Shown here piece after piece: positions 7,773 to 22,861 of a DNA stretch of 64,000 bases. The first letter of the stretch is position 1, and every line of letters begins with the position of its first letter. The notes under the pieces were generated by a model. It worked only from the letters and a program-made list of their open reading frames with translations, was not told the DNA's origin and did no database searches. The translations under genes and the position numbers were made by a program. Source of the stretch: a virus. Taxonomy: Duplodnaviria > Caudoviricetes. The stretch lies in IMG/VR virus record IMGVR_UViG_3300021368_000002; one strand, written 5' to 3'.

Positions 7773-7783
7773 GAGGGACTGAT

Positions 7784-8116
7784 ATGTATTACATCTACGA
7801 ACAATCGACTACCTATATCATTGGCAAGCCAGACCGCAATGGTGTGGCTCGTCCAGATCATCGTCAGAGCTATAAAACAATGGCGGCGGCCAAAGCCGGG
7901 CTCACACGAATTGCAAAGGCGGAAGGCTTGTTGAAGACAGATCCTAACCATGCTGAGTATCGTTATGCGATAGCAGAAGCAGATTATTTCCATAAGAACA
8001 TTGAGAAGCAGGTGAAGCGAAAGGTGCTTGAAGGCTTTGGTGGCAAGGAGTTTATGGAACCTATCAACACCCCTTCCTATATGTCACCGTCAAGTGAATC
8101 ATATTGGAGTATGTGA
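7784..8116 (+). CDS. early hypothetical protein
   Basis: GAGGG RBS. Confidence 0.8.
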   Translation: MYYIYEQSTTYIIGKPDRNGVARPDHRQSYKTMAAAKAGLTRIAKAEGLLKTDPNHAEYRYAIAEADYFHKNIEKQVKRKVLEGFGGKEFMEPINTPSYMSPSSESYWSM

Positions 8117-8117
8117 T

Positions 8118-8642
8118 ATGGGAATGAAAATTACAGATTTTGTCCACGATGGTTTTTGCAAGATTGCTGATGTAAGATGGCATCCATGCGAACAAAGAAT
8201 TAGAGAGGGTAAATGGACTTTGGTAAACACAAACGACCTACTCCTCTTTTCAGAGCATGATAGTTGGATCTATTGTATTGTAGAAGGCGACATCATTAAG
8301 AAACTTGGCGAAACAGGTAACCCCTTAGGCGTGCAGAACAAAGATGGATCTTTGGCTACAGGCACCCAGGGCAGACTAGGACGTCTTTGTTCTATGGGCA
8401 GTATCAACTCCGACACCACCGACACCGACACCCGTATTAGATATGAATTGCAAGATTCTATAGATGCAGAGGTTGTATCTATTTGGGCCAAACCATGTGA
8501 GATTGTATATACTACAGTTTCGTTCCATGGACAGGAAAAACAAGTCAAGCTCACCACCCATAAGGATTTAGAAAGAGTGATGCTGGATCATATCTATGCT
8601 GAAACAGGAACATATCCTGATCTAAACAAAGGCAGAAAGTAA
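8118..8642 (+). CDS. GIY-YIG nuclease resembling T4 endonuclease II (DenA)
   Basis: WIYCIVEGDIIKKLGET ~ IYAIAINDELVYIGKT; SIWAKPC ~ EFYARQC; KDLE; PDLN ~ PPWN (by-eye comparison from memory). Confidence 0.6.
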   Translation: MGMKITDFVHDGFCKIADVRWHPCEQRIREGKWTLVNTNDLLLFSEHDSWIYCIVEGDIIKKLGETGNPLGVQNKDGSLATGTQGRLGRLCSMGSINSDTTDTDTRIRYELQDSIDAEVVSIWAKPCEIVYTTVSFHGQEKQVKLTTHKDLERVMLDHIYAETGTYPDLNKGRK

Positions 8643-8718
8643 CCAAAAGAGGTTGACATTTGCTAGTGTCGACCTTATTATGTATGTATAAGTTGAAACA
8701 ACAGACAAGAGGGTAACA

Positions 8719-8994
8719 ATGTCTAATTCAGTAACAAAAGCCGTCCAAGAGATTTACAAAATGGACAACGATCAGCTCAACCAAGTCGTTGAAGCGATTA
8801 AACTTCGTAGAACTTATTTGACTCGTGAGGCAGCTCGGTCTTTCCGAACAGGACAGATTGTGTCGTTTACATCTCGCACAGGTGGCAAAATTACAGGTTC
8901 TATTCAAAAGGTCAACCGTAAGTATATTATCGTTGATGCCCATGTAGGTGGCACACGATACAAGGTGCCTGCGTCAATGCTGGAGACTGTATAA
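8719..8994 (+). CDS. early hypothetical protein, SH3-like pattern
   Basis: promoter 8653; GQIVSF..ITGSIQKVNRKYIIV. Confidence 0.8.
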   Translation: MSNSVTKAVQEIYKMDNDQLNQVVEAIKLRRTYLTREAARSFRTGQIVSFTSRTGGKITGSIQKVNRKYIIVDAHVGGTRYKVPASMLETV

Positions 8995-9194
8995 TGTTAG
9001 CCTATTGCGATTACATTGCAGACACTATCAAGCGATCATTTAATAATGACAAGCCTGATAATATGATTAAAAGTGTAGGTCCTATTCAAATGGACCTACA
9101 TCCAACCGAAGGGTATTTCCTGTCTACCAAAAAGACGATGAGCATGACAGACATGAACGGAAAGACCTATATGATTACAATAGAGGAGGCGTAA
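8994..9194 (+). CDS. early hypothetical protein
   Basis: TAATG coupling. Confidence 0.75.
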   Translation: MLAYCDYIADTIKRSFNNDKPDNMIKSVGPIQMDLHPTEGYFLSTKKTMSMTDMNGKTYMITIEEA

Positions 9195-9359
9195 ATGAAC
9201 GAACTTGTTGAAATGATCGAAGACCTTGAAACGATCTCTACCATGACCATGCACCCTGCATTGGAAGAAACAATCGAACGCATCACCCAGAAGTATGAAC
9301 AGCGTTTGGCTGATGCAGAAGCAGATCTTGAACGCCAATACGAGATGGACTTTGCTTAA
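9195..9359 (+). CDS. 54-aa acidic hypothetical protein
   Basis: GAGGAGG RBS; read by eye. Confidence 0.7.
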   Translation: MNELVEMIEDLETISTMTMHPALEETIERITQKYEQRLADAEADLERQYEMDFA

Positions 9360-10002
9360 TCCTAACACCATAACAGGGAGGTATCTTGCATTCTACCAAG
9401 ACCTCCTTGAACATTGCGACACCTGCGTAGGTGAAGCATTGGGTTCCAATCAGCCAGCGGCTCGTGCTAAAGATTTGAGAAACAGAGGCTATGTTTTTAA
9501 GAAGCACGGCAACCAATATGTTCGCTCAGTGTTCTGCGAAACCTGTGGCAAGTCTACTCCACATCGTCAATTGGAAAGTGCCGAGCCGGTCAATGCTGCC
9601 ATACACAGAGCAGGATGGAGCGCCAAGTTCGTCAAGCGAGTAAAAAAGGTCCTTTCCAACTACGATGAAATAGAACGGCGGACACTCAACCCTGCCCAAC
9701 TAGAAATTGATCACCGTGTTCCCCATATCCGATTTGAAGAAAGTGAACAGCTCGACGAAGCGACAATCACGGACAATGAAATCCGTGAACGGTATATGCT
9801 CCTCAAGCGAGACAATAACCTGCTCAAAAGTCGTGCCTGCGAAAGATGCGAACGAGACGGAAAGAGACAGCCTAGTCGCGATGGTGTCCAGTTCTTTTAC
9901 GAAGGCTCAGATGTATTCACAGGATCTTGTGTAGGGTGCTATTGGCACAATCCAAGTCTCTGGACAGAAAAACTTAATCAAAATCTCTTGACAAATGCCT
10001 AG
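9295..10002 (+). CDS. HNH nuclease resembling NlaIII/IceA-type restriction endonucleases; start uncertain
   Basis: EIDHRVP, N..KSRACERC, FYEG, CVGCY; comparable motifs recalled in NlaIII (EIDHK, CKKC, FYVG, CVGCY). Confidence 0.65.
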   Translation: MNSVWLMQKQILNANTRWTLLNPNTITGRYLAFYQDLLEHCDTCVGEALGSNQPAARAKDLRNRGYVFKKHGNQYVRSVFCETCGKSTPHRQLESAEPVNAAIHRAGWSAKFVKRVKKVLSNYDEIERRTLNPAQLEIDHRVPHIRFEESEQLDEATITDNEIRERYMLLKRDNNLLKSRACERCERDGKRQPSRDGVQFFYEGSDVFTGSCVGCYWHNPSLWTEKLNQNLLTNA

Positions 10003-10050
10003 ACTGACGCTATATTGTATGTATAGTTAGAAACAACGGAGGGCAATCCA

Positions 10051-10269
10051 ATGGCAACAGATTTGAAAAGCACCACAGAAGATGTTAGTTTGACTCGCTT
10101 CTGGGGTGGCAAAGACCGCGGAACTTGTGTTCAAGTCACAACCACATACACCGCTCGTAGAGAAGACTTCTTCAAACATATATCGTTGACTCGAGAACAG
10201 GCTCGTTCTGTTGCTGAGGATTTGATGGCATTTGCTGAAGGTAATGAAGAGGCAGACTATTCATTATGA
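10051..10269 (+). CDS. early hypothetical protein
   Basis: promoter 9988; GGAGGG RBS. Confidence 0.8.
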   Translation: MATDLKSTTEDVSLTRFWGGKDRGTCVQVTTTYTARREDFFKHISLTREQARSVAEDLMAFAEGNEEADYSL

Positions 10270-10409
10270 TTTATGTGGTTAAGGACTCAAAAGGCAATAC
10301 GGTAGCACTCTGCTCAGATATAAAAGACGCTGAAGCATATCTAAAGAGTGCTGCCGTTGATAAAACAACCTACACGATTGAAACAATAAAAAACAAGGAA
10401 GAAAAATGA
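10266..10409 (+). CDS. 47-aa hypothetical protein
   Basis: read by eye; ATGA overlaps at both ends. Confidence 0.6.
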   Translation: MIYVVKDSKGNTVALCSDIKDAEAYLKSAAVDKTTYTIETIKNKEEK

Positions 10410-10807
10410 CCCATACCTTTTTCGAAAAAAATTCAAACTATATTGTAGAAGAACAATTCGACTCCGAACCGTTCATCGTCGAAGTGTCATGGGCACCAGA
10501 CTCAACCCAACTGGAGTTGGTATTTGATCCTTCAGAAGACTATTTCGAAGAGCTCCAGGAAAAGATCCGTGATGGTGTTTGGGAGCATTTCATCCTTAAA
10601 GTGGCTGTCTATTATGATGGACTGGAAGTAGGCAGTTCCTATCTGGGATCTATCGTTGCAGAATCACCTGCAGATTATATCAAAGACGATCCAGACAATC
10701 ATGTAGACGAAATGGTCAGAGAAGCACTCGACGAAGCCCAGAACGAATGTCTTAAACGATTAGACCGTTTGAAAGAAGATTTCCTAGGATTGTCCATTAC
10801 TGGTTGA
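10406..10807 (+). CDS. very acidic early protein
   Basis: AAGGA RBS; D/E-rich. Confidence 0.8.
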   Translation: MTHTFFEKNSNYIVEEQFDSEPFIVEVSWAPDSTQLELVFDPSEDYFEELQEKIRDGVWEHFILKVAVYYDGLEVGSSYLGSIVAESPADYIKDDPDNHVDEMVREALDEAQNECLKRLDRLKEDFLGLSITG

Positions 10808-10864
10808 CACGAGTGTGATCAGAATGTATTATTAGGGTATAGTTAGAAACAACGGAGGGCTCCG

Positions 10865-11149
10865 ATGGCTTATTACACCTACACTCAAAAACCAATTGGT
10901 GTTTTTGTAGAAAAAGACACTGGCAATTATTTTGAATATTCGGTTAATGACGAGCCCTATTCAAACCCACTTGCTGAGGACTTTCCACACAAGGTATGGG
11001 TAGGTGGAGGAGGTGTTGCTGGCATGACTGGCTGGCGCTTTGCCCATGTTCGCAAGACTGTGGCAACTATAGTCGTAGACGAAGATGAGTATGGTCTACC
11101 TGTTGTAGAGAAATGGTATTTGAAATCCAATAAGGAGTATGCGGTATGA
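10865..11149 (+). CDS. early hypothetical protein
   Basis: promoter 10804. Confidence 0.85.
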   Translation: MAYYTYTQKPIGVFVEKDTGNYFEYSVNDEPYSNPLAEDFPHKVWVGGGGVAGMTGWRFAHVRKTVATIVVDEDEYGLPVVEKWYLKSNKEYAV

Positions 11150-11418
11150 GATTTGATAATCTCGTGTTTTTCGGATCGCCTGAAGGCATCAAAAGAGCAA
11201 AGGTTCAGTTCGGCAAGTATGAACTGAGTGTGATACAGGAGCCCAAAAAGAACTCCTATGAAATCGCAATCTTTGACGAACAAGGAAGTTTCGTTCAGCT
11301 CCCTGGTATCCATAGAATCCCTGTGGATGATAGAGACTTCGTAGACGATGTGATCCCTTATCTTCAACCCGAGGCTGTTTCGGCAATCATGCTCAAGTTG
11401 GCATCCATTTCAGGTTGA
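11146..11418 (+). CDS. early hypothetical protein
   Basis: AAGGAG RBS; ATGA overlap. Confidence 0.75.
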   Translation: MRFDNLVFFGSPEGIKRAKVQFGKYELSVIQEPKKNSYEIAIFDEQGSFVQLPGIHRIPVDDRDFVDDVIPYLQPEAVSAIMLKLASISG

Positions 11419-11488
11419 CAATACAAAAATAGATGTTATAGTAAGAGTATAGTTAGAAACAACAAAACGCCTTAGGAGGGCTCCACAA

Positions 11489-11944
11489 ATGGCAACTCGT
11501 TCAAATATCGCTTACAAAACCGCAGAAGGCAAAATCCGTTCAGTGTATTGTCACTGGGATGGCTACCCTGCTCACAATGGTGAAATGCTCACTCGTCACT
11601 ATAGCGAACTAGACAAGGTGCGTCAGTTGATTGCACTAGGTTCTATCTCGTCTTTGCGTGAGGAGATCGGCGACAAGCAGGACTTTGATGATCGTTCGAC
11701 ACAGAATGACGCATGGACACTTGCCTATCACAGAGATCGCGGCGAGCAATTGAGCATCCAAGAATATGATGATGTTCCCAGCTGGATCGAAGACATGGAG
11801 GAGTATGCCTATCTTTGGACGGAAAACGGTTGGTTGGTAAACGACCACGGTGCAAAAGATGCCAACGGCTTTCCTATCTTCGACTATGTTGAAACGGTAG
11901 TCACAGATGAGATGCGAAAGCAGATTGGATGGGATAACGAATAA
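11489..11944 (+). CDS. conserved phage early protein (YCHWDGYP motif)
   Basis: MATRS.I..IRSVYCHWDGYPAHNG..L..HY; promoter 11415. Confidence 0.85.
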   Translation: MATRSNIAYKTAEGKIRSVYCHWDGYPAHNGEMLTRHYSELDKVRQLIALGSISSLREEIGDKQDFDDRSTQNDAWTLAYHRDRGEQLSIQEYDDVPSWIEDMEEYAYLWTENGWLVNDHGAKDANGFPIFDYVETVVTDEMRKQIGWDNE

Positions 11945-12114
11945 TGACAGAGATGCATATGGCGTGGGATGCCTTACAAGCCCTTCTTATCGTAGGATTC
12001 ACAATCGGTGTGGTTTGTGCAGTGATATTCGCTGCCATTAGACTGGGCTGGCAACTAGCCCCTTGGCTGTTTATTGGTGCATTTATCGTATGGTTTTTCA
12101 ATCAAATCACTTGA
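11944..12114 (+). CDS. 56-aa two-TM membrane protein
   Basis: read by eye; TAATG coupling; stop lies in next -35. Confidence 0.6.
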   Translation: MTEMHMAWDALQALLIVGFTIGVVCAVIFAAIRLGWQLAPWLFIGAFIVWFFNQIT

Positions 12115-12175
12115 CATTACGTCTAGAGATGTTATTATATATGTATAGTTAGAAACAAGGCAATGGAGGGTAACA

Positions 12176-12730
12176 ATGCCAAACTGGTGTAACAACACAA
12201 TCACAATCAAAGGTTCAACTGAAACTGTAAAGGCTCTTTGGGACCAAGCCACACAAGAAGACTCAGGTTTGCTGGATGCAATGATTCCTATGCCTGAAGC
12301 ACTCAAAGGCACTACTTCACCTGATCCTCAGCCAGGACAAGCCAATTACAAAGGTCCACAGCCTGTGGTTGATGGCTTCACTAATTGGTATGATTGGGCT
12401 ATCAAGAACTGGGGCGTCAAGTGGGATGTTTCAACCGAAGGGCTTGAGTATGAAGATCTAGGTGACGGCACTGCCTCTATCACAGGCTGGTTTGATTCGC
12501 CTTGGGGACCTCCTATTGAAGCCATGCAGAAGTTCGCAGACGATATGGACGGTGCCTATGTCGAACTGTTCTATCACGAGCCAGGCATGGCATTCGTAGG
12601 CTGTTGGGACTCAGAAGGTGGAGATGACTATTATGAATATGCCTCTGCTGATGACATTCCCGATTACCTAGACGAAGCCTTTGGCATCTCAGAAGATCTT
12701 GCGATGTGGGCAGAAGAGGAGACAGCGTAA
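12176..12730 (+). CDS. DUF1281/YubB-like (Api92-like) protein
   Basis: MPNWCNN.I.I.G, WYDWAIKNWGVKWD, FDSPWGPP, L.Y.EPGM.F.G. Confidence 0.8.
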   Translation: MPNWCNNTITIKGSTETVKALWDQATQEDSGLLDAMIPMPEALKGTTSPDPQPGQANYKGPQPVVDGFTNWYDWAIKNWGVKWDVSTEGLEYEDLGDGTASITGWFDSPWGPPIEAMQKFADDMDGAYVELFYHEPGMAFVGCWDSEGGDDYYEYASADDIPDYLDEAFGISEDLAMWAEEETA

Positions 12731-12894
12731 TGGATGCGGTATTGTTTGAAGACGTGGATCCAATGGAACTGGTATTAGAAGCAGTAGAGGACGCACTCAA
12801 AGGTCAGTGCGCCTCGTTTGAAATCATGAGTATTGATGGCGATGACACGGGCTTGACCTTTACTGTCTCTGCAGAATACAAGGAGAACTCTTAA
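12730..12894 (+). CDS. acidic 54-aa protein
   Basis: TAATG coupling. Confidence 0.65.
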   Translation: MDAVLFEDVDPMELVLEAVEDALKGQCASFEIMSIDGDDTGLTFTVSAEYKENS

Positions 12895-13139
12895 TGGTAA
12901 TGAGCCTGCGTGAAACTTTCAAAAGCCCCGGCGTAAAAGCTCGCTGGGTCTGCGTGTATGAGAATGCACCTATGACGGTTCATGCTACCAAAGAAGATGC
13001 AATGAACCAATTGATCCGTGAACACAATCCTGCGATTCGTGTAACTGATCCTAGAGGCGTGACACGGGTGACCATAGACGAGCATCGATCGTTCGTATAT
13101 CACACCCACGAACCGGAGGCAGATGATGGGACCGTATAG
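12894..13139 (+). CDS. hypothetical protein
   Basis: AAGGAG RBS. Confidence 0.7.
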   Translation: MVMSLRETFKSPGVKARWVCVYENAPMTVHATKEDAMNQLIREHNPAIRVTDPRGVTRVTIDEHRSFVYHTHEPEADDGTV

Positions 13140-13335
13140 CGAAGAAACACAATATCGCAGAGCTCAGAGCATCTGCAACCTGTTGGAGCGATCGCCTGAT
13201 CTGCCCGCAGAAACTAGAGCTATTTGGCAGAATCACCTCGCCAATCTCGCTAGAAACGAAACCACTTACAATTGGCGAGTGAAAGAAATCTATTCTAAAC
13301 TAACAAGGAGGCCTTTGATCCAATGGGACGAGTAA
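13123..13335 (+). CDS. hypothetical protein
   Basis: GGAGG RBS. Confidence 0.7.
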   Translation: MMGPYSEETQYRRAQSICNLLERSPDLPAETRAIWQNHLANLARNETTYNWRVKEIYSKLTRRPLIQWDE

Positions 13336-13508
13336 ACGACTGGACACTTGGTATGGAAGAAGATGCGAGCTGGATGAGCAGAGACGTGTTCGTTCGAGTG
13401 TATGGCATCCGTCAACAAGACATCTGGGAACGGATTAACAACCCTGAGGACTACTACGAACCAGAGCCTGACTTTGAAGCAATGGAAGAAGGTTTCTATG
13501 GCTCGTAA
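13323..13508 (+). CDS. acidic hypothetical protein
   Basis: AAGGAGG RBS. Confidence 0.7.
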   Translation: MGRVNDWTLGMEEDASWMSRDVFVRVYGIRQQDIWERINNPEDYYEPEPDFEAMEEGFYGS

Positions 13509-13722
13509 GTTCGCAAAAAGATATTTGAAGCCTACAGTATTTGATCCCAAGGATCATTGGATGGTAGGCATTGAATGGCCCGTGCAAGGTTCCAAAGGCA
13601 ATGAATATCTAGTGACCTTGCACGACCAAGGCTTTGAATGTGAATGCACAGGATTCCAATTCCACGGTGCTTGCAAGCATAGCAAAGCCGTTCTCGCTCA
13701 AGTAGAAGGAGCAATGACATGA
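13498..13722 (+). CDS. SWIM zinc-finger protein
   Basis: CECTGFQFHGACKH (CxCxnCxH); start ATG 13498. Confidence 0.8.
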   Translation: MARKFAKRYLKPTVFDPKDHWMVGIEWPVQGSKGNEYLVTLHDQGFECECTGFQFHGACKHSKAVLAQVEGAMT

Positions 13723-13928
13723 GCAAACCTAAACAGTTTAAGGGCCGGGTCTACACCTATTCACAGCCCTACACAACCTACAATACCTTTCCTAACTCTG
13801 CACCATTCACCAAACAGGAGATGCAGACACAACAGGAATTAGGTCGTTGGAAAACAATCGACTCAATCGTAGATAAGATGGATGAGTTCCCTGAAGTTGA
13901 GAGGTTGCTGGCCCAAATAGTGCGATAG
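13719..13928 (+). CDS. hypothetical protein
   Basis: AAGGAG RBS; ATGA overlap. Confidence 0.7.
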   Translation: MSKPKQFKGRVYTYSQPYTTYNTFPNSAPFTKQEMQTQQELGRWKTIDSIVDKMDEFPEVERLLAQIVR

Positions 13929-13953
13929 CACCTGCGGTTCTAAAAAAAATTTT

Positions 13954-14247
13954 ATGAGCATTGTATACGATATAGATGATGAAACACGGCAATACCTAGA
14001 GGCAGCTCTTAACTGTCTTGTTCATGTAGCAGATTGCCAAATACAAGATGCAGACGCAGAAGCTCTTTATCACATAGGTGACACACTAGCAGATAGATTC
14101 GGCATTGAAAAGATAGATGTTGAAACCGTGCAGGGCACTGACGAGAATGGTGAAGAGGTTACTGTGATCAGAGAACGCAAGCGACCTTCAAAAGGATTGA
14201 GTTGGAGTATTAGCCACGAAGATCCAGATGATATGAACGAAGATTAA
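13954..14247 (+). CDS. acidic hypothetical protein
   Basis: ORF track. Confidence 0.65.
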   Translation: MSIVYDIDDETRQYLEAALNCLVHVADCQIQDADAEALYHIGDTLADRFGIEKIDVETVQGTDENGEEVTVIRERKRPSKGLSWSISHEDPDDMNED

Positions 14248-14257
14248 CACACCACGA

Positions 14258-14310
14258 GGCCCCGCTGTTAGAACCTAGATTACCTACACGACCTACAGGC
14301 CCCGCTGTAT
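14258..14310 (+). repeat. two copies of GGCCCCGCTGT, 40 bp apart
   Basis: 14258-14268 and 14298-14308; further copies at 4876 and 18357. Confidence 0.85.
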
Positions 14311-14342
14311 GGTCTCTGCGATCTGCGATAAATATCTTTCAC

Positions 14343-14495
14343 ATGGCACATGAACGAGATTTTGCAGACGAAACAGACGATCCTTGCGATCACATACCTA
14401 TCGAACGACTGTTGTTATGGTATACGTCAAATGAGCCACATCCTGAATACCCCAAGCAAATAGAAACACGAGATACTGAAGGCGATGCCCTATGA
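14343..14495 (+). CDS. 50-aa hypothetical protein
   Basis: read by eye; GATAAATA upstream. Confidence 0.5.
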   Translation: MAHERDFADETDDPCDHIPIERLLLWYTSNEPHPEYPKQIETRDTEGDAL

Positions 14496-14635
14496 TCTCA
14501 GTAGTAGAGAAACAGAATCGTAACCGTAAAACCTATTGGGTGGTAGAGCGGAACGGTAGTATATTGCTTATCACACACTCAAAAAGCATTGCCCAAGACT
14601 ATGCAGATAAACTACGAGCCAACACTAGAGACTAG
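14492..14635 (+). CDS. 47-aa hypothetical protein
   Basis: read by eye; ATGA overlap. Confidence 0.5.
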   Translation: MISVVEKQNRNRKTYWVVERNGSILLITHSKSIAQDYADKLRANTRD

Positions 14636-15228
14636 TGTGAGTGCGAGTATAGTTAGAGTGAAAAACGGTGAAAAGTATTTGAACTATGCCTCTCGTCACC
14701 TTCCGTGACTCGAAAAAATTCACACTTAGAACCGTAGAGAACCGTGATTGTTGGATGGTTTTCTGCACACTAGCCACCATTTAACCACCATTGCAGGGCC
14801 CTTAAAACCGTCTTAAAAGGCGAGTTTGACCTTGGTCCACGGCTCGCAGGGAGAGGTGGTTTGAGGGGCCTCCGGCCCCACTTTGCCCCTACTCTACTAC
14901 TACAGTTTCAACCTACTCTGTCGCTAGTAGTGTTTCAACCTAAGACTCTGATTCTGCACATTTTTTCCACTCTTTGCTAGCCGTATATTATACACTCTCT
15001 ACACTATATAAGCAAGTTAAAAGACACATTAACTATACGATGTAACCTACTGTTATTATTAGACTTTTTCCTAAGTATTTGATTTTATTGGATTTTTTCT
15101 CGCGGCCATCGTGGTCTTTCGTTCTTTAGGTGTCGTTCGTTCTTTTTGCGATTTTGGATAAAAAGAGGTTGACAGGTGTGTAGGCAGGTGCTATAGTGTA
15201 TGTATAGTTAGAAATTAGGAGGGCACCT

Positions 15229-15444
15229 ATGCAATACGGAATGTTTACTAAAGAAGGCGATGCGAAAGTCCACAAGTTGGTCCTGCAAGCGAGGCAGTAT
15301 GCGGATTTGGATGGACCGATTAATCCTGTAGAGCAGGCGTGGAATTGGTTGCTAAACGAGCTCCATGCACTAGGCGAGGATCCGGCTTTTGAAGAGGCGA
15401 CCGACACAGCCGTTAGAGAGGCCTGTTACGACAGGCTAATTTAA
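15229..15444 (+). CDS. early hypothetical protein
   Basis: promoter 15169; GGAGGG RBS. Confidence 0.85.
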   Translation: MQYGMFTKEGDAKVHKLVLQARQYADLDGPINPVEQAWNWLLNELHALGEDPAFEEATDTAVREACYDRLI

Positions 15445-15521
15445 TCGCCAAAAGAGGTTGACACTATAGCGAACAGGTGCTATAGTGTATGTATAGTTAG
15501 AAACGCAGAGAGGGCACAATC

Positions 15522-15869
15522 ATGCAATTCATCGTAAGCACACAGGGACTTGAGAACTATGGCGCACACTGTGAGGACGGCAAGTTCCGTTCGGGCAATG
15601 CCTACTGGAAGTTCAAGTCAGGCACGGACTACCTTGTGTCGGGCCTAGAGCGGCCGCAAGATGCGATGGCATTCGTTGCCTCGTTCGGTATGGACAATTC
15701 AATCGGTTGGAAGGAGTTCCCATGCGAGGTTGTGAGCGAGGATGAATGGGAGTCACAGTGGAACATGGACGACGAGTTCGATGTGGAACACAGAGAGTTC
15801 AAGCTCTCTATTATGGTTAAGGTGGATCCGAGAGATCCGGCGACCTACAAACGGTTTTTGGCAAGGTAG
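15522..15869 (+). CDS. early hypothetical protein
   Basis: promoter 15458. Confidence 0.85.
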   Translation: MQFIVSTQGLENYGAHCEDGKFRSGNAYWKFKSGTDYLVSGLERPQDAMAFVASFGMDNSIGWKEFPCEVVSEDEWESQWNMDDEFDVEHREFKLSIMVKVDPRDPATYKRFLAR

Positions 15870-15932
15870 GGGTTGACAACCCCGCCACCTGGTGTTATAG
15901 TAGTTGTATAGTTAATAGAGAGGGTGATGACA

Positions 15933-16136
15933 ATGTTTGTACTGATTTGGAAAGGTGAAGAGATTGATTCGTTTGAGTCCGAGGCAGAGGCCCGGAGCAT
16001 GGCGAGTGAATACAACATGGCCTACGGTGGAGGTGTCCACGTAGAGTTTGTCGAGGAAGACGACGGACAGCCAAGTTGGGAGCAGGAGTGGGAAGACTTC
16101 GGCGAAGACGCAGGATACGAGATGGAGTATCTCTAA
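15933..16136 (+). CDS. extremely acidic small early protein
   Basis: promoter 15873; D/E-rich C-terminus. Confidence 0.8.
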   Translation: MFVLIWKGEEIDSFESEAEARSMASEYNMAYGGGVHVEFVEEDDGQPSWEQEWEDFGEDAGYEMEYL

Positions 16137-16139
16137 AGA

Positions 16140-16336
16140 GGCCCTCAGGTCGGGAGTATAAACCCAGTTAGACCGGAACACCTACATACAAGTTCCGGCG
16201 GGAGATGGGAAGGCGCCCTCGAGAAAGGCCTCCCACTTTTAACGCCCGCGGTTTTAACGCCCGTGACTTTTTGGGTCCTTTCGTGCGGTAAAAAGGTCAG
16301 AGCTCCGTGCCCTCCCGTTCCAGCTCTCCGGTCCTC
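16140..16336 (-). ncRNA. candidate structured RNA from the divergent promoter
   Basis: GC-rich; several inverted repeats (GACCGGA/TCCGGTC, CCGGAAC/GTTCCGG, AGAGCT/AGCTCT); TTTTAACGCCCG direct repeat; no start codon after its RBS-like motif. Confidence 0.4.
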
Positions 16337-16342
16337 AATTAT

Positions 16343-16371
16343 AATATAGCACAAGCCTAGCACTATGTCAA
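16343..16371 (-). promoter_or_regulatory. divergent sigma70-like promoter
   Basis: reverse strand GGGG-TTGACA-N17-TATATT. Confidence 0.8.
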
Positions 16372-16399
16372 CCCCTTGTGCGAAAAAAGAATCCTTTGT

Positions 16400-16453
16400 T
16401 TTCAAGAGGTTAGAAAAAAAATAAAAATAAATTTTTCTGCTAAGTCATTGTTT
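16400..16453. promoter_or_regulatory. inverted pair of IHF-consensus-like sites flanking an A/T tract
   Basis: TTTCAAGAGGTTA (16400) and TAAGTCATTGTTT (16441), each 1 mismatch from WATCAANNNNTTR. Confidence 0.45.
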
Positions 16454-16537
16454 TTAAACAAAACATTTTGCTTTACAAGTACGTATTGTTGTGTTATATT
16501 GTTTGTATGTTAACAAATGCATATAGGAGGGCAACAT

Positions 16538-16852
16538 ATGCAAACAACAACAAAAACATTAGACTGTGCTGTACGTGTAAATTGGGTAGCAGAGGATGCA
16601 GAATGGAAAGCAGAGTTTGAACAGTATGGCTATGACACAGATATGTGGGTTGCTGTAGGTGACTTTGATTATGAATGGAGAGATAACGTAGAAACTGTGG
16701 CTGTATTAAAAGACGAAGAATACGGTTTTATGTGTGGAAACGAAAGTGACAGGCGCTGCTACGGATTTACTGTGGATGTGTACAAAGCAGAGGAAGCAGA
16801 TGGCAACTACAGTTTTTGGATAACAGAGGAAGACTTTGAAAAAATAGGTTGA
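16538..16852 (+). CDS. acidic Pro-free early protein
   Basis: TTTACA promoter; GGAGGG RBS; ATG 16538. Confidence 0.85.
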   Translation: MQTTTKTLDCAVRVNWVAEDAEWKAEFEQYGYDTDMWVAVGDFDYEWRDNVETVAVLKDEEYGFMCGNESDRRCYGFTVDVYKAEEADGNYSFWITEEDFEKIG

Positions 16853-16913
16853 CAACTGTGTGTATGTGTGCTACTATGTACACATACACTAACAAGCAAT
16901 AGAGGGCAATGCT

Positions 16914-17165
16914 ATGCTTACAAAATACGAAAACGCAGTAACAAAAGCAATTGAATATTTTGCACTGCAAATTAACAACTGTGCGCACGACAGCGTAGTA
17001 GAAAACAACGACTACGGAATTTACGACAGCATAGACAGCATAAACTTTTTGTTTAGCAACTACAAAAATTTTGACAGCGTAACAGCACTTGCAAACTTTG
17101 CACTAGACAGCACACTGGATACTGTAGTGCGCGAAAACATATACTACGTGCTAACGGAAAAATAA
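16914..17165 (+). CDS. acidic Pro-free early protein
   Basis: hairpin promoter 16849. Confidence 0.8.
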   Translation: MLTKYENAVTKAIEYFALQINNCAHDSVVENNDYGIYDSIDSINFLFSNYKNFDSVTALANFALDSTLDTVVRENIYYVLTEK

Positions 17166-17231
17166 CACTTGACAACTGTGTATGTGTGCTATAGTGTACA
17201 CATACACTAAACATAGCAGAGAGGGCAAACT

Positions 17232-17447
17232 ATGCTACAAGTACACATTTTACAACTGCAAGGCACAGGCGACGACGAGAAGGCTTGGGAGAACGCAGGG
17301 GTGTTTGCAAGTTGGGAAGAAGCACAAGAACGTGCAGCAGAATTTAGCAAAGAAGACATTGAGGAGTACGGCGAAGCGTTTTGGATAATGGGCGAGAATA
17401 TGCGTATTGAAACACATGACGTAGTAGACAACAACTGGGGGTACTAG
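17232..17447 (+). CDS. acidic Pro-free early protein
   Basis: hairpin promoter 17169. Confidence 0.8.
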   Translation: MLQVHILQLQGTGDDEKAWENAGVFASWEEAQERAAEFSKEDIEEYGEAFWIMGENMRIETHDVVDNNWGY

Positions 17448-17519
17448 TAAAAAAAACAGTTGACAGCAGCAAGTTTTGTGTTATACTGTATGTACAGTTA
17501 AACAAAACGAGGGCTACGT

Positions 17520-17768
17520 ATGTTAACTACAAAACAACTTGCACGTAATGTGTTTTTAACTTATTGCAGCACTAGCAATACAATGTTTAAACATTGTAGC
17601 AAAACAAAGCCGCAGCACGTTAGCACAACAAACGTAAAAGCAGTAAAGCGCAACGTAAGCGCACAACTTGTGCAACAGTACAAAATGCTTCCTGCACTGT
17701 ACAACTTGTACAACAAAAACAAAAGTGTTAAGCAAACAGCAACACAACTAATTAACAGCATTGTGTAA
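17520..17768 (+). CDS. basic early protein with no Asp, Glu, Gly or Trp
   Basis: promoter 17460; GAGGG RBS. Confidence 0.75.
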   Translation: MLTTKQLARNVFLTYCSTSNTMFKHCSKTKPQHVSTTNVKAVKRNVSAQLVQQYKMLPALYNLYNKNKSVKQTATQLINSIV

Positions 17769-17842
17769 AAAAAACTTGACAACTGTGTGTATGTGTGCTA
17801 CTATGTACACATACACTAAACATTGCAACTAGTGAGGGCTAC

Positions 17843-18316
17843 ATGGCAATACATTACAGTACACAGGTACAAGACTACTTTGAACACTTGACAAACGAGT
17901 GTGCAGACGAAACACGTTTTACACAAGACGAAAAGTGTTTTGTGTTAGAATTTTTAGCAAACACACTGTATGGCTTAACGGAAGTAAACAGCGAAAGTTT
18001 GCGTGACGACAAGCAATTTGTGCGTATGCAAGATTGCAGTGAGGTAGCAGACAACTACGTAATGCTACTAAACAAACACAAACGCAGTGACTATACTGTA
18101 GTAAACGGCAAGTATGTGGAAAGTGACGAATACTATACGTTTACACTAGAAGATGCAGGCACTGCTATTTGCAGTTATGACACAGAGTATAGAGAGTGCA
18201 TAACAGAGCAATTTGAAGATGCACTTAACGAGTACTTTGCATTAAGCAAAGCAAACAAAATTGCAACACTTGATATTGCAAACTGTTTAGCGTGGCGAGT
18301 GTTTAACAGTTACTAA
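17843..18316 (+). CDS. acidic Pro-free early protein
   Basis: hairpin promoter 17776; ATG 17843. Confidence 0.85.
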   Translation: MAIHYSTQVQDYFEHLTNECADETRFTQDEKCFVLEFLANTLYGLTEVNSESLRDDKQFVRMQDCSEVADNYVMLLNKHKRSDYTVVNGKYVESDEYYTFTLEDAGTAICSYDTEYRECITEQFEDALNEYFALSKANKIATLDIANCLAWRVFNSY

Positions 18317-18386
18317 CGCTAACACTGTGCAGTGTGTGCAAATGCGTACACTGTGCGGCCCCGCTGTATAGCGGATAAAACATAAC

Positions 18387-18428
18387 AAAAACAAGCACTT
18401 ACAAAAAAAATGCTAAGTGCTTGTTTTT
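18387..18428. repeat. perfect 15-bp inverted repeat with IHF-like arms
   Basis: AAAAACAAGCACTTA-N12-TAAGTGCTTGTTTTT. Confidence 0.85.
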
Positions 18429-18513
18429 AAACGAAACTTTTTGCTTGCATTGTGCAAATAGTTGTGTTATATTGTTTGTATAAATTAAATGTAACAGCAT
18501 AGAGGGTAATAAT

Positions 18514-18774
18514 ATGCAAAACACACAAACAAACAACTATGTATTTTTAGCAGCAGCAAACGCTGCTATTGTTGTAACTGTAAACAACAAAGTTGTTGCT
18601 ACAGACGTACAAACAGCAGACGCACTTGTGCAAGTGTTTTTAACACATAATATTAATGTACTAAAAGACACTATTATGTGTAGCAGCAGCATAGATTTTG
18701 CAGAAGAAGAGGGCTTTGCTAGTGACGCAAGTGCGCATAATATAATAGATGAAGCATTTGAAGCATTAGCATAG
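18514..18774 (+). CDS. Pro-free early protein
   Basis: TTGCAT promoter; GAGGG RBS. Confidence 0.8.
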   Translation: MQNTQTNNYVFLAAANAAIVVTVNNKVVATDVQTADALVQVFLTHNINVLKDTIMCSSSIDFAEEEGFASDASAHNIIDEAFEALA

Positions 18775-18879
18775 TACGCTAATACTTTAGTATAGCAAGC
18801 ACTATACAAAAAAGTGCTTGCTATTTTTATTTTTTGTGTTATATTAGTTGTATAAGTTAACAAGCATATGAGGGCTATT

Positions 18880-19149
18880 ATGCAAAATACAACAACAAAA
18901 ACCGCACGTAGCATTGTGCGTAACATCCTAAAGCAAAACAACGTAATGTATTCCTCACATAGTTATACAAACAAATGTGCAAATCCTGCGCTGCGTAATA
19001 TTTGCTTCCTCACTAAAAACTTAACTCCTGCTGTGCTGCAACAAATTGCTTCTTCGCTTAATGTTAGCAAAGTACACGCAACAAAGCCTAAGTTTTACAA
19101 TGTGCATCCGGATGCACGTTACCTACGCATTGTGCATTGCAAAATGTAA
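18880..19149 (+). CDS. basic early protein (one Asp, no Glu/Gly/Trp)
   Basis: TTGCTA promoter; GAGGG RBS; ATG 18880. Confidence 0.75.
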   Translation: MQNTTTKTARSIVRNILKQNNVMYSSHSYTNKCANPALRNICFLTKNLTPAVLQQIASSLNVSKVHATKPKFYNVHPDARYLRIVHCKM

Positions 19150-19222
19150 AAAAAACGGTTGACAAGTGTGTTTGTGTGTGCTACTATGTACACATAAACA
19201 CTAAAAAGCATAGGAGGGTTAT

Positions 19223-19414
19223 ATGCTTACACTTTGCAACAAAAAACTGCTGCGTGACGGCAGTTGCGTTTTTACAAACTTTAACTTTTACAACAAAGTA
19301 AAAGATGCAGACGGAGACGTGTGCTACTACTACGCAAACTTGCACTACAAAGGCACTACGCAAAAATGCAGTGTTAGTGTGCAAAACGGAAACGTAGTAG
19401 GTTGGCAAACGTAA
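19223..19414 (+). CDS. Pro-free early protein
   Basis: hairpin promoter 19159. Confidence 0.8.
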   Translation: MLTLCNKKLLRDGSCVFTNFNFYNKVKDADGDVCYYYANLHYKGTTQKCSVSVQNGNVVGWQT

Positions 19415-19498
19415 AAAGTTAAAAAAAATGCAAATTAGGGGTTGACAAACGGCTCCTCCTTTGCTATAGTGTATGTATAGTTAGAGAGCGAGGGCAAG

Positions 19499-19660
19499 AT
19501 GATACGTTTTATGACAGGACTTTTTGTAGTGATGGCAGCAGTAGGTACGCTAGAGGCGAACCACGAGGCGAGCTTGCTATGGTACGGAATGCTAGGCTTG
19601 GTTGGTTGTGCTGCAATGGCATGGCCGGTATGTGACGGAACACTGACAGGAGACGAATAA
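19499..19660 (+). CDS. 53-aa membrane protein
   Basis: promoter 19442; read by eye; two hydrophobic stretches. Confidence 0.65.
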   Translation: MIRFMTGLFVVMAAVGTLEANHEASLLWYGMLGLVGCAAMAWPVCDGTLTGDE

Positions 19661-19860
19661 TGGATTGGCGTGAGTATGCACTAGAGCAGGTAGAGATTGG
19701 AACCATCGATCCTGAGCTGCTGGCGACTTGTTTGCTGAAGTATATGTCGCAGGACGACATCCAGGACTGCCTGGACACGAACGAGCTGACCCCTCGTTTC
19801 GCTGACGATCCCAACTTCCCAGCTGAGAGCAGCGATGCAGATATTTGCCTAGTTTGGTAA
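19660..19860 (+). CDS. acidic hypothetical protein
   Basis: TAATG coupling; AGGAG RBS. Confidence 0.75.
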   Translation: MDWREYALEQVEIGTIDPELLATCLLKYMSQDDIQDCLDTNELTPRFADDPNFPAESSDADICLVW

Positions 19861-19933
19861 AAAAGTGGTTGACAGGTGTGTGGTTAGGCCATATACTGTA
19901 AGAGTAAGTTAAACAAAGCAGAGGGCTTTATAG

Positions 19934-20221
19934 ATGAAAACTTTTAGTGTAGCAGGAACTTCGCGTTTGAACGGTACGGTTAAGATTCGCTTTGCAAATG
20001 ACTTTGTAAGCCGTATGAAGGTGCTGTTTAAGAACGGACACGAAGACGTCGAGTTGATCGAACTTGGCGGTGAGTTTACTAAATCCGAAGTTTGCCAGAT
20101 CCTAATGGCACATCCTAACTTCCAATCGGAAGAACAACAAGCAGCGATTTACGAATATGTAATCCGCAACTGCCGTGACATTAAAACCGAAATAGAGGAG
20201 AAGATGCTACAAGAGGCATAA
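19934..20221 (+). CDS. early hypothetical protein
   Basis: promoter 19869. Confidence 0.85.
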   Translation: MKTFSVAGTSRLNGTVKIRFANDFVSRMKVLFKNGHEDVELIELGGEFTKSEVCQILMAHPNFQSEEQQAAIYEYVIRNCRDIKTEIEEKMLQEA

Positions 20222-20302
20222 GATCACCTCGGGCGAAGTACGGTGAAGCCTACTTCGAGATTGGTAGAGCGGTGGGGCTCCAATCACTTTTCGAATTTCA
20301 TA

Positions 20303-20379
20303 GGGCCATTAGCTCAATTGGTTAGAGCACCGGACTCATAATCCGTAGGTTGACAGTTCGAGTCTGTCATGGCCCACCA
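20303..20379 (+). tRNA. tRNA with CAT anticodon, most likely Ile2 (lysidine type)
   Basis: GGGCCAT/ATGGCCC acceptor, CT-CAT-AA loop, TTCGAGT T-loop, encoded CCA; paired G1:C72 argues against initiator. Confidence 0.88.
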
Positions 20380-20382
20380 GAA

Positions 20383-20459
<77 letters not shown>

Positions 20460-20464
20460 ATACC

Positions 20465-20549
20465 GCTCGCGTGGTGAAATAGGTAAACACAACGGACTTA
20501 AAATCCGTCGCCGATAGGCTTGCCGGTTCGATTCCGGCCGCGAGCACCA
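20465..20549 (+). tRNA. tRNA-Leu(TAA)
   Basis: GCTCGCG/CGCGAGC acceptor, ACGGA-CT-TAA-AA-TCCGT, long variable arm, CCA. Confidence 0.95.
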
Positions 20550-20631
20550 AAACTTTTTTTAAAAAAGAGGTTGACAACCGCACTAAAAGATCGTATAGTG
20601 TATGTATAAGTTAAGCAAGAGGGCAAACACA

Positions 20632-20820
20632 ATGATTAGAATTTTTAACTCAGCACTAGAAGGCGAGCGTTGGATTCCACTGGACGAGGTCAACATTGTA
20701 ACACAAGGCATCGATCCTGTGTTTTCATCACCTTACATTTTGTTTGAGCACAAAGACTATCCACTAGGTGCGCTGCGAGCTGAGTTTACAGACGGCCATT
20801 GGGCTGCGGATTTGAATTAA
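20632..20820 (+). CDS. early hypothetical protein
   Basis: promoter 20571; ATG 20632. Confidence 0.8.
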   Translation: MIRIFNSALEGERWIPLDEVNIVTQGIDPVFSSPYILFEHKDYPLGALRAEFTDGHWAADLN

Positions 20821-20889
20821 TTAGGGGTTGACATTCTAACGTTAGAGTGTATACTGTAAGAGTAAGTTAACAAAGGGCAAGAGGCGCAA

Positions 20890-21882
20890 ATGAATATCAT
20901 TATTAACGAAGGCACGTACAAGATACGAGGCAAAGACACTAGTGTAGCCGGTATGGTGTTTCCACTAGTAGAGGAATTTAAAATGGGTGCTGCAGGAGGT
21001 TACGTAACAGTCGACGGCAAGGCAGTCGCAGGCTTTCCAGATCGTAACATCAAGATCAAGGTGTCGGATGCGGATGCATACGAGTCAGTAGATGCTGCAC
21101 CTACGCAGAGAGAAGAGACCGACGAAGAGACCATTGAACGGTTGCGTGAACGATTTGAAATGCTCGAAGACATGACCCGAGCTGCTAAGAAAGGTGATGT
21201 GCGAGCAATGATCGTATCAGGACCTCCTGGTGTTGGTAAGTCGCACGGTGTAGAAAAAGTACTAGGCAAGCACGACTTGATTGCGCAGTTAGGCGATCGT
21301 CCTGCAAAGTACCAGGTGGTGAAAGGTGCTATGTCGCCCATCGGCCTCTACTGTAAACTGTTCAACTATGCCGACAAGGATAATGTATTGGTGTTCGACG
21401 ACTGTGACTCAATCTTCAGCGACGAACTATCGTTGAACATCCTCAAAGCAGCACTTGATTCGAAGAAGACACGTACCATCCATTGGAACACTGATTCATT
21501 CAAGCTACGTAACGAAGGCGTGCCGGATTCATTCGAGTTCAAAGGTTCAGCGATCTTTATCACGAACTTGAAGTTCGACAAGACCAAAGGCAAATTGCGT
21601 GAGCATCTAATGGCACTAGAAAGTCGTTGCCATTACATCGACCTTACGATTGATACCGAGCGAGAGAAGATGCTGCGTATCAAACAGATCGTCGGCGATG
21701 GTATGCTCCGTGAGTACAAGTTCGGTGAAGAACTACAGCAAGAGATCGTAGACTTCGTTGATATTAATAAGAAGCGACTAAGAGAACTGTCATTGCGTAC
21801 AGTACTAAAGGTCGCCGATTTGGCCAAGGCATTTCCTACCAAGTGGGAAGCCATGGCAGAGAACACTGTGATGAAGCGTTAA
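20890..21882 (+). CDS. P-loop AAA+-type ATPase with N-terminal extra domain
   Basis: Walker A GPPGVGKS; Walker B VLVFDDCD; FITN; ALESR. Confidence 0.88.
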   Translation: MNIIINEGTYKIRGKDTSVAGMVFPLVEEFKMGAAGGYVTVDGKAVAGFPDRNIKIKVSDADAYESVDAAPTQREETDEETIERLRERFEMLEDMTRAAKKGDVRAMIVSGPPGVGKSHGVEKVLGKHDLIAQLGDRPAKYQVVKGAMSPIGLYCKLFNYADKDNVLVFDDCDSIFSDELSLNILKAALDSKKTRTIHWNTDSFKLRNEGVPDSFEFKGSAIFITNLKFDKTKGKLREHLMALESRCHYIDLTIDTEREKMLRIKQIVGDGMLREYKFGEELQQEIVDFVDINKKRLRELSLRTVLKVADLAKAFPTKWEAMAENTVMKR

Positions 21883-21948
21883 GCCCTCAACGCTCACAGT
21901 GAGTACAGCATACGAGCAACAGCCCTCACGCTCTGCTGTACGTCCGTG

Positions 21949-21994
21949 GCCCGGGTTGAGCTCTATGCCCTCAGAGCTCCCCGGGCTTTTTTTT
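21949..21994 (+). terminator. intrinsic terminator
   Basis: GCCCGGG..GAGCTCT/AGAGCTC..CCCGGGC followed by a T run. Confidence 0.85.
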
Positions 21995-22064
21995 ACCAAA
22001 AGTGGTTGACATATGAGCACAGTGATCATATACTAATAATAAGAGTTAAGGAAACGAGGGTAAC

Positions 22065-22421
22065 ATGAAAAAATTCGCAATCAACACAACATCAAATCTT
22101 CTTTCAGCACTGGTTATTGCAGGCGCGATCTTTGTAGCACAACCTGCCAAAGCCGGTGACGACTTTGTGAAAGGACTGTTTGGTGTGCTGATACTTAATG
22201 AGATTCTAAACAACAACAGTTCGAACCACACACACTCTACGACGATTATCGATCGCCAGGTGTATAACGATCACGCTCGATCAATCCACAGCCGTTCAGA
22301 GACGATCCGTAGAGCAAGCCAACGAACTGTATGCTATTCGGAATACCGTGAAGCAACGAACGGCACGATCGTTCGTTACGATTACAACTGCCAAGGAAAT
22401 GTTCTTTCAGTAAGCAGATAG
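22065..22421 (+). CDS. secreted or membrane hypothetical protein
   Basis: signal-peptide-like N-terminus; promoter 22006. Confidence 0.8.
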   Translation: MKKFAINTTSNLLSALVIAGAIFVAQPAKAGDDFVKGLFGVLILNEILNNNSSNHTHSTTIIDRQVYNDHARSIHSRSETIRRASQRTVCYSEYREATNGTIVRYDYNCQGNVLSVSR

Positions 22422-22488
22422 GGGTTGACAGACACACAGTCAGATCATATACTGTAAGAGTAAGTTAAACAAAGAGAGGGCACACTCA

Positions 22489-22815
22489 ATGACACAAGTA
22501 GCAGTAATCCACACAGCATTCGAAGACACTCCCCGCACTGTAGCACTGGTAGACGCACCAGAAGGCACAGTAGAACAGCAGCTGGAGTATGCTTACCGTT
22601 GGACACAAAACATCATGGACAGTTGGTCAATGAAAGGTGAAGCCGATGGCAACGATCGAGTAACACTTATGGCTCCACTGTATGAAGATGAGAACGGTAA
22701 GCAATGGGGACACCGCAGCACAAGCATGGGAGATCATATGCTGCTAGGCACTACCAAGTACGTAGTATCAGCTGTCGGGTTTGAACAATTAGAGGTTGAC
22801 AGTGTAGCCAACTGA
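22489..22815 (+). CDS. early hypothetical protein
   Basis: promoter 22425. Confidence 0.85.
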   Translation: MTQVAVIHTAFEDTPRTVALVDAPEGTVEQQLEYAYRWTQNIMDSWSMKGEADGNDRVTLMAPLYEDENGKQWGHRSTSMGDHMLLGTTKYVVSAVGFEQLEVDSVAN

Positions 22816-22861
22816 GGCTATACTGTAAGAGTAAGTTAACAAAGCAAGAGGGCAATACGCT

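Follow-up and report, generated by a model that had tools for sequence, protein, structure and literature searches.

Introduction

What might a promoter gain from an inverted repeat that would place its own -10 box in the loop of a hairpin? The question is raised by a cluster of small genes in the IMG/VR virus record IMGVR_UViG_3300021368_000002 (Duplodnaviria; Caudoviricetes), of which a stretch of 64,000 nucleotides, here called the window, was analysed. Within an island of genes at 16517-19414, the promoters at 16849, 17169, 17776 and 19159 carry such repeats, and an initial annotation made from the sequence alone proposed that they could be structure-dependent or cruciform-regulated promoters or, alternatively, operators for a dimeric regulator. 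Here, we show by a comparison of promoters from the window and its relatives, complemented with RNA folding and an analysis of gene context, that the stems are selected as structures and that the selected structure lies on the sense strand. The stems are probably those of promoter-early stem-loop (PeSL)-type cassettes, in which the hairpin would form in read-through RNA and insulate neighbouring cassettes from each other.

Results

The hairpins that loop out the -10 box at 16849, 17169 and 17776 are indeed present: each promoter contains perfect 10-nt arms, GTGTATGTGT/ACACATACAC, placed 10 nt apart (16860-16869/16880-16889, 17178-17187/17198-17207 and 17787-17796/17807-17816). The copy at 19159 also pairs, as claimed, through 12-nt arms with 92% pairing, GTGTTTGTGTGT/ACACATAAACAC (19168-19179/19190-19201). 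In RNA folding the stems reach 12, 12, 12 and 14 pairs including G:U, the 6-nt loop is exactly the -10 hexamer, and the segment z-scores of the four folded stems range from -3.0 to -3.6. All four stems sit in sigma70-type promoters on the + strand with the -35 box outside the stem. The first cassette (16849-16889) has its -35 box TTGACA at 16849-16854, the 5' arm GTGTATGTGTGC in the spacer (16860-16871), the -10 box TACTAT in the loop (16872-16877) and the 3' arm GTACACATACAC in the initial transcribed region (16878-16889), followed by a Shine-Dalgarno (SD) sequence GAGGG at 16902-16906 and an ATG at 16914. The second (17169-17207) is built from a -35 box at 17169-17174, a 5' arm at 17178-17189, the looped -10 box TATAGT at 17190-17195 and a 3' arm at 17196-17207. 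Its spacer is only 15 nt long (17175-17189), one GT of the GT run having been lost outside the stem, and this promoter probably relies on its TGn extended -10 element or uses TAGTGT at 17-nt spacing. In the third cassette (17776-17816) the corresponding elements are found at 17776-17781 (-35), 17787-17798 (5' arm), 17799-17804 (-10 TACTAT, loop) and 17805-17816 (3' arm). The fourth (19159-19201), with its -35 box at 19159-19164 and TACTAT at 19182-19187 in the loop, pairs GTGTTTGTGTGTGC (19168-19181) with GTACACATAAACAC (19188-19201) over 14 pairs, two of which are G:U. The four stems are AU-rich, span 12-14 bp and are followed by TAACAAGC, TAAACATA, TAAACATT and TAAAAAGC, respectively (TAAACA or TAACAA), none of which provides a U-tract.

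Such repeats are more frequent in the window than expected, as 14 perfect inverted repeats of at least 9 nt with loops of 3-14 nt were found versus 3.15 in shuffles, and 4 of these 14 fall within the 2.6% of the sequence that consists of promoter cassettes. The proposal that the stems show compensatory changes holds in part within the window. The 19159 copy is changed on both arms, one pair having gone from G:C to T:A by a double change and another from A:T to G:T, but the other three copies are near-identical paralogues, which leaves 19159 as the single informative case. Slippage of the GT/AC repeat could also account for this copy, as pairing is just as good when the partner is shifted by 2 columns, and on its own it argues only weakly for compensation.

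The nrdC.10-like protein encoded at 20890-21882 led to 79 related IMG/VR loci (51-86% identity), in each of which the early region was included for as much as 10 kb upstream, and a promoter set was assembled from every TTGACN-N16-18-TAnnnT match in the window and 103 related viral loci, amounting to 1012 unique sequences. In the exact register, in which the -10 hexamer is the mirror centre of the two arms, runs of at least 10 pairs are seen in 8 promoters, versus 0.4 after random re-pairing of spacers and downstream parts. In any register, 70 of the 1012 promoters score at least 9 versus 9.8 in left/right chimeras, and when 30 nt of upstream sequence are added at least 10 pairs are seen in 12.3% versus 2.2%. 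Overall, the excess of stem-loops over chimeric controls is 6-7-fold. The stems occupy several positions. Pairing of the spacer with the initial transcribed sequence, with the -10 box in the loop, accounts for 51 of them, and pairing of the spacer with the extended -10 element itself for 69 (for instance ACAGTATAGCA-N6-TGCTATACTGT); a further 52 pair upstream sequence with the spacer and enclose the -35 box, and 35 are stand-alone upstream stems. Where the spacer pairs with the -10 element, the 5' arm matches whichever -10 variant is present, be it TATACT, TATAGT, TACAGT or TACATT. Where it pairs with the initial transcribed sequence, the arms of different promoters are often unrelated, as in CGTGTACATA/TATGTACACG, GTGTTAGTGTGT/ACACACTAACAC, TGCTCTGTGCAGA/TCTGCACAGGGCA and TTTTTATTAT/ATAATAAAAA. 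The same position is taken by at least 15 unrelated arm sequences, several of them per genome, with 3-7 different stems each in the loci L022, L036 and L042.

Covariation across related phages, which the initial annotation had named as a check, is seen at an orthologous promoter. In the 275-kb relative L042, the orthologue of the 17776 promoter (L042:5036-5088) precedes the orthologue of the 17843 gene (72% protein identity, same leader) and carries the stem AGTGTGCGTGTACT/AGTATACGCATACT, which differs from the window copy by two compensatory double changes and two G:C to G:U changes. Together with the many different stems in the same position, this orthologue bears out selection of the stem as a structure, with pairing maintained while both arms change. 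A collection-wide pattern search reveals which arm follows the other. The 3' arm GTACACATACAC was found behind a -10 box in 23 contigs, in 12 of which the spacer is not complementary, whereas the 5' arm GTGTATGTGTGC was found in the spacer of 12 contigs, all 12 of which have the complementary 3' arm. This one-way dependence indicates that the initial transcribed sequence is conserved for reasons of its own and that it is the free spacer that adjusts.

In which molecule does the fold form? Interior non-Watson-Crick oppositions with two pairs to either side were counted over 118 distinct stems and amount to 27 G:T, 4 T:G, 3 C:A, no A:C and 7 others, scattered over many positions and stems. In chance stems from composition-matched chimeras, G:T/T:G makes up 26% of the mismatches and A:C/C:A 19%, compared with 31 of 41 for G:T/T:G in the observed set (p 3e-11); the contrast of 31 with 3 A:C/C:A is likewise significant (p 2e-5). 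Moreover, the sense RNA folds better than the antisense RNA by 3.7 kcal/mol in stem-bearing promoters, versus 0.2 in the rest. The G:T bias and the folding advantage of the sense strand imply that selection acts on a single-stranded structure of the sense strand, and the folding molecule would most simply be RNA, which tolerates G:U. Because a promoter's own transcript would start in the loop or in the 3' arm, both arms could be present together only in RNA arriving from upstream.

The genomic setting of the stems agrees with an upstream origin of the folding RNA. The comparison used 631 unique promoters with a downstream ribosome site and start codon, leaving out any that an open reading frame (ORF) spans. 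Stems of at least 9 pairs are present in 23.7% of those with a co-directional ORF (at least 50 codons) ending at most 60 nt upstream, versus 6.8% of the others (odds ratio 4.3, p 1e-7). The share of promoters with embedded stems is highest, at 34%, for stop codons 5-15 nt ahead of the -35 box. No classical terminator was found between 16517 and 18316. We considered whether the four stems of the window could be classed as rho-independent terminators and rejected this, as no U-tract follows them; that feature is found at 18792-18836 and 18387-18428. Since the embedded stems are without a T-run, efficient intrinsic termination is unlikely. In some relatives with a very short leader (L056:1145-1197 and 5947-5999; L040:9048-9100; L052:8316-8368), the spacer arm pairs with the AGGGCA ribosome site, which in read-through RNA would be sequestered within a stem of 12-13 bp, much like that of T4 gene e.

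The promoters of the island belong to an array of ~24 compact early-gene cassettes on the + strand at ~7.4-22.8 kb. Each opens with an A-rich tract and TTGACA; a spacer of 17 nt with TGn at its end leads to the TAnnnT -10 box, after which come a conserved initial transcribed sequence and, ahead of a small ORF, the ribosome-binding site GAGGG. The pattern TTGACA-N17-TAnnnT has 24 matches in the window versus 1.3 expected; A-runs upstream of the -35 box and TGn extended -10 elements are recognisable in the window promoters at the sequence level, and GAGGG and an ATG follow every cassette. Packing can be extreme: the stop codon TGA (16850-16852) of the ORF at 16517-16852 sits within the -35 box TTGACA of the next promoter, so that no intergenic space is left. 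None of the 10 small ORFs between 16517 and 20221 matches any Pfam family. The first ~20 nt after the -10 box of the + strand promoters at 7434-22830 fall into a few conserved families, GTATGTATAGTTAGAAAC, GTAAGAGTAAGTTAAAC, GTACACATACACTAAAC and GTATGTACAGTTAAAC, the first of which includes a second TATAGT, and the GTACACATACAC family is common to unrelated-looking viral contigs that have a GGAGC ribosome site. In RNA folds, the translation starts of the island each lie in a small hairpin with GAGGG in the loop and AUG in the 3' arm (16893-16920, 17213-17240, 17822-17850, 18492-18520, 18853-18875 and 19205-19229). The stems of these start-codon hairpins are short, e.g. GCAUA...UAUGC or AAGCAUA...UAUGCUU, and they may serve to tune translation.

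Other promoters of the window carry stems of a different make. The inverted repeat noted at the 17460 promoter exists as the inner part of a composite, imperfect stem (17460-17508, + strand), in which ACTGT (17485-17489) pairs with ACAGT (17494-17498), the -10 box TATACT (17482-17487) is enclosed, and spacer sequence GTTTTGT (17473-17479) pairs with leader sequence ACAAAAC (17502-17508). At the + strand promoter TTGCAT-N17-TATATT (18446-18483), a spacer arm (18450-18462) pairs with the end of the -10 box and the leader (18471-18483) through 9 Watson-Crick pairs plus G:U pairs. The repeat over the -35 box at 18818 is real, and the -35 box does lie in its 3' arm, but it is an ordinary intrinsic terminator, ATAGCAAGCACT-N9-AGTGCTTGCTAT (18792-18824) followed by TTTTTATTTTTT. 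It forms a terminator-promoter composite on the + strand (18792-18845), in which the arms at 18792-18803 and 18813-18824 are followed by a T-run (18825-18836) that is at the same time the promoter spacer, with TTGCTA in the 3' arm as the -35 box and TATATT, ending at 18845, as the -10 box. A stand-alone, bidirectional-looking intrinsic terminator (18387-18428), with a 15-bp perfect stem between an A-run and a T-run, follows the gene at 17843-18316.

The statement that cassettes outside the island lack the stem is correct for this particular stem; others are present there, at 8650-8675, 15461-15488 and 22799-22826, all on the + strand. The stem at 8650-8675 encloses or overlaps the -35 box of the 8653 promoter (AGGTTGACATT/AGTGTCGACCT). 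The other two are of a second type, in which the sequence after the -35 box is the reverse complement of the extended -10 element and tracks the -10 variant, as it does in many loci. In the feature at 15458-15488, ACACTATAGC (15461-15470, overlapping the -35 box) is the reverse complement of GCTATAGTGT in the extended -10 element (15479-15488), and in that at 22796-22826, ACAGTGTAGCC (22799-22809) pairs with GGCTATACTGT (22816-22826) with one G:U pair. Stems of this type create a mirror-image, promoter-like site CTTACA-N17-TATACT on the bottom strand, which is also seen at 20860-20833. A bidirectional promoter would be possible for the variants with a 6-nt loop; we set this candidate aside, as the 8-nt-loop variants are without the bottom-strand TG and the stems show the G:T bias. 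A role of a -10 box in an RNA loop as a decoy for sigma70 was rejected as well, as the second type has its -10 box in the stem.

The window itself derives from a marine jumbo myovirus that, as judged from its proteins, is distantly related to Pseudomonas phage PA5oct. Hallmarks of a large myovirus among its structural genes include a 1077-aa tail sheath, a large terminase and helicases; a T4-like terminase and an nrdC.10-like gene are present, and the closest cultured phage is the jumbo phage PA5oct, with 56% identity of the large terminase subunit (TerL). A megablast search against 50,697 records yielded no near-identical phage genome, only tRNA matches, and an Rfam search likewise returned tRNAs only. 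DNA of the window is found in seawater, marine, marsh and estuary metagenomes. In PA5oct, the 40 kb around the nrdC.10 homologue hold few promoters, and a dense cassette array was not found there; the PA5oct paper reports TTGAC/TATAATA promoters and separate terminators, without stem-loops.

Discussion

What would such a stem do between two tightly packed genes? We consider it likely that the stems belong to PeSL-type cassettes and that their hairpin forms in read-through RNA. Genes in the array are packed so tightly, with stop codons abutting or overlapping the -35 box, that the 17-nt promoter spacer would be the sole free sequence. This spacer may have evolved complementarity to a constrained neighbour, namely the initial transcribed sequence in the four copies, the extended -10 element in the second type, or the sequence upstream of the -35 box in a third. 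The hairpin would then be confined to RNA arriving by read-through of the gene upstream, and it would punctuate or insulate adjacent cassettes, each gene depending mainly on its own promoter. Candidate routes are attenuation of read-through, capping of the 3' end of the upstream message, or masking of the downstream leader or ribosome site. The repeated cassettes probably double as joints for gene shuffling.

Several observations weigh against this explanation or limit it. A strong stem is present in only about a quarter of tightly packed promoters. T-runs are not enriched after embedded stems, as at least 5 T in the next 8 nt occur in 2-3%, which equals background. The 3' arm of the four window copies ends at least 12 nt before the ribosome site (16889 versus an SD start at 16902), so that direct masking does not apply to these copies. 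A hairpin in the non-template DNA strand would also fit the G:T bias. Two marsh metatranscriptome runs hold small shares of the window in contigs of 150-240 nt, broken at the repeated cassettes like the DNA contigs, and these are too short to show transcript ends or read-through. Finally, an alignment of 28 hand-picked promoters has 80% of its cells paired and 26 doubly changed cells versus 12 in shuffles. We discount this result, as the rows were chosen for having stems; the same alignment pairs equally well with the partner slid by -2 columns, owing to the GT/AC-repeat arms, and RNAalifold found no consensus in it, as the loop registers differ.

A more far-reaching version, which we put forward tentatively and regard as rather less than probable, goes beyond the PeSL papers. 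The spacer would be a built-in antisense arm against its own -10 box or leader, and an RNA hairpin without a U-tract would mark the origin of a transcript, read-through versus own promoter. Cassettes of orphan genes could in this manner be insulated by a non-terminator route (3'-end capping, blocked ribosome carry-over or leader masking), as a general and evolvable design rule across a large clade of uncultured marine jumbo phages.

Among the alternatives, the stem might mainly be a recombination signal, a hairpin or cruciform that is cut or paired by phage machinery and drives excision and insertion of cassettes, as in the mini-circle model of PeSLs. Island gene order is indeed shuffled between relatives: the window has the order 16517, 16914, 17232, 17520, 17843, 18514, 18868 (16517-19414), whereas L042 (5036-7900) has the genes corresponding to 17843, 17232, 16517, 18868, 18514, 16914, the six shared genes being 70-90% identical in amino-acid sequence. 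The same genes are found behind different promoter cassettes in different relatives, and PeSL crossovers lie in or next to the stem-loop (PMC2839356). In one marsh sample, different cassettes are also connected at their promoters by DNA contigs, and contigs from marsh metagenomes link 15174-15226, 16878, 17187, 19885, 20551-20575 and 22819 to one another, all within promoter/ribosome-site cassettes; with sides below 30 nt, these joins weakly suggest co-occurring relatives with different gene content and argue weakly for recombination. However, homology from the shared promoter sequence alone would suffice, and the diversity of stem sequences lowers homology between cassettes. A recombination signal also predicts neither the strand-specific tolerance of G:T nor the dependence on an upstream co-directional gene, and we think it unlikely to be the main role of the stem.

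It is improbable, too, that the stems are a neutral by-product, i.e. functionless local inverted repeats made by template-switch mutation or by cassette duplication in T4-like replication. Three of the window copies are plain duplicates, GT/AC-repeat arms are prone to slippage, and a strong stem is found in a minority of promoters, all of which neutrality would accommodate. Decay of such repeats should, however, give about as many G:T as A:C mismatches and many others, and the counts are 31, 3 and 7. Furthermore, the enrichment varies with gene context, and stems turn over and yet persist at orthologous genes.

A structural promoter at the DNA level, in which a cruciform or hairpin, extruded under supercoiling, exposes or destroys the -10 box and so tunes or times activity, seems very unlikely. 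Perfect 10-bp palindromes centred on the -10 hexamer would suit it, and a laboratory-derived E. coli promoter described by Horwitz and Loeb in 1988 is reportedly repressed by cruciform extrusion. In a cruciform, however, both strands must fold, and the bottom strand would carry A:C mismatches; the excess of G:T/T:G over A:C/C:A and the poorer folding of the antisense strand do not bear out this part of the earlier proposal. Long central spacers, here 6-14 nt, disfavour cruciform extrusion, extrusion of the promoter spacer would wreck the -35/-10 spacing, and the link to an upstream co-directional ORF is left without explanation. Least credible is an operator at which a dimeric phage or host regulator shuts off a subset of early promoters, for although four promoters of one island share a palindrome whose half-sites are two helical turns apart and the 3' half-site is widely conserved, single genomes hold many unrelated stems with no shared half-site, a different, compensated stem is found at the orthologous L042 promoter, G:T is tolerated and A:C is not, and none of the 10 small ORFs at 16517-20221 has a recognisable DNA-binding domain.

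The window reveals no new kind of promoter; what it offers is a view of PeSL architecture in an abundant clade of uncultured marine jumbo phages. To our knowledge, earlier descriptions of PeSL cassettes are limited to a few cultured T4-like phages, with little mechanistic follow-up. The comparative evidence added here is that the stems are selected, that this selection concerns the sense strand and tolerates G:U, an indication of RNA, that the free spacer adapts to the constrained -10 box or leader, that the stems accompany tightly packed co-directional genes, and that most of them are not classical terminators. The purpose of the PeSL stem becomes a testable question, and the same findings would account for the shuffling of orphan-gene strings in which every gene retains its autonomous expression.

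How do these cassettes compare with known systems? The promoters of the N4 virion RNA polymerase have a 5-7 bp stem and a 3-nt loop and are used by a phage polymerase, and in Frpo a hairpin rebuilds double-stranded -35 and -10 boxes in its stem. The promoters of the window share with both the ability of the promoter region to form a hairpin. In contrast to both, their stems span 12-14 bp, the -35 box lies outside the stem, the -10 box is unpaired in a loop of 6-10 nt, and near-consensus sigma70 boxes are present, which speaks against N4-type or single-stranded DNA (Frpo-type) promoters, to which the initial annotation had likened them.

Another parallel is found in T4, where the promoters of e, soc, 49 and I-TevI lie inside an inhibitory hairpin that only longer transcripts can fold (McPheeters et al. 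1986; reviewed in PMC3014915). As in these genes, the promoter is within hairpin-coding DNA, and the 5' arm is missing from transcripts that begin at the proximal promoter. However, T4 has a late promoter at this place, and its 3' arm contains the Shine-Dalgarno sequence or the AUG; sequestration of this kind is seen only in some relatives (L056, L040 and L052) and not in the window copies.

The closest match is the PeSL of phages RB49 and phi1, a repeated cassette in which an AT-rich tract and a stem-loop accompany a strong sigma70-like promoter and an orphan gene's ribosome site (Arbiol et al. 2010; PMC2839356). PeSL stems include ones 'overlapping the -10 box', with G-T pairs marked; one stem cut reporter expression like rrnB T1; and recombination between cassettes shuffles genes and yields mini-circles, with crossovers mapped in or next to the stem-loop (PMC2839356). 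PeSLs were later extended to the PST/T4 and nt-1/KVP40 pairs, with other stem sequences (Comeau et al. 2014; PMC4122927). The present cassettes differ in their carrier, an uncultured marine jumbo-phage clade nearest to PA5oct instead of the Straboviridae, and in their stems, which are derived from GT/AC repeats or from the -10 element and not of the GGGG...CCCC or A3G3...C3T3 kind. The embedded stems also have no T-runs, so that the 'effective terminator' activity shown for one RB49/phi1 stem cannot be assumed. In common with PeSLs, they are compact and repeated within a variable region, with an AT-rich tract, a near-consensus TTGACA-N17 promoter, a stem-loop, a Shine-Dalgarno sequence and a small orphan gene; the stems lie, among other places, between the -35 box and the -10 box or over the latter and contain G-T pairs, and the cassettes are shuffled between relatives. 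As far as its sequence can tell, the window has every feature by which a PeSL array is recognised, shuffling included.

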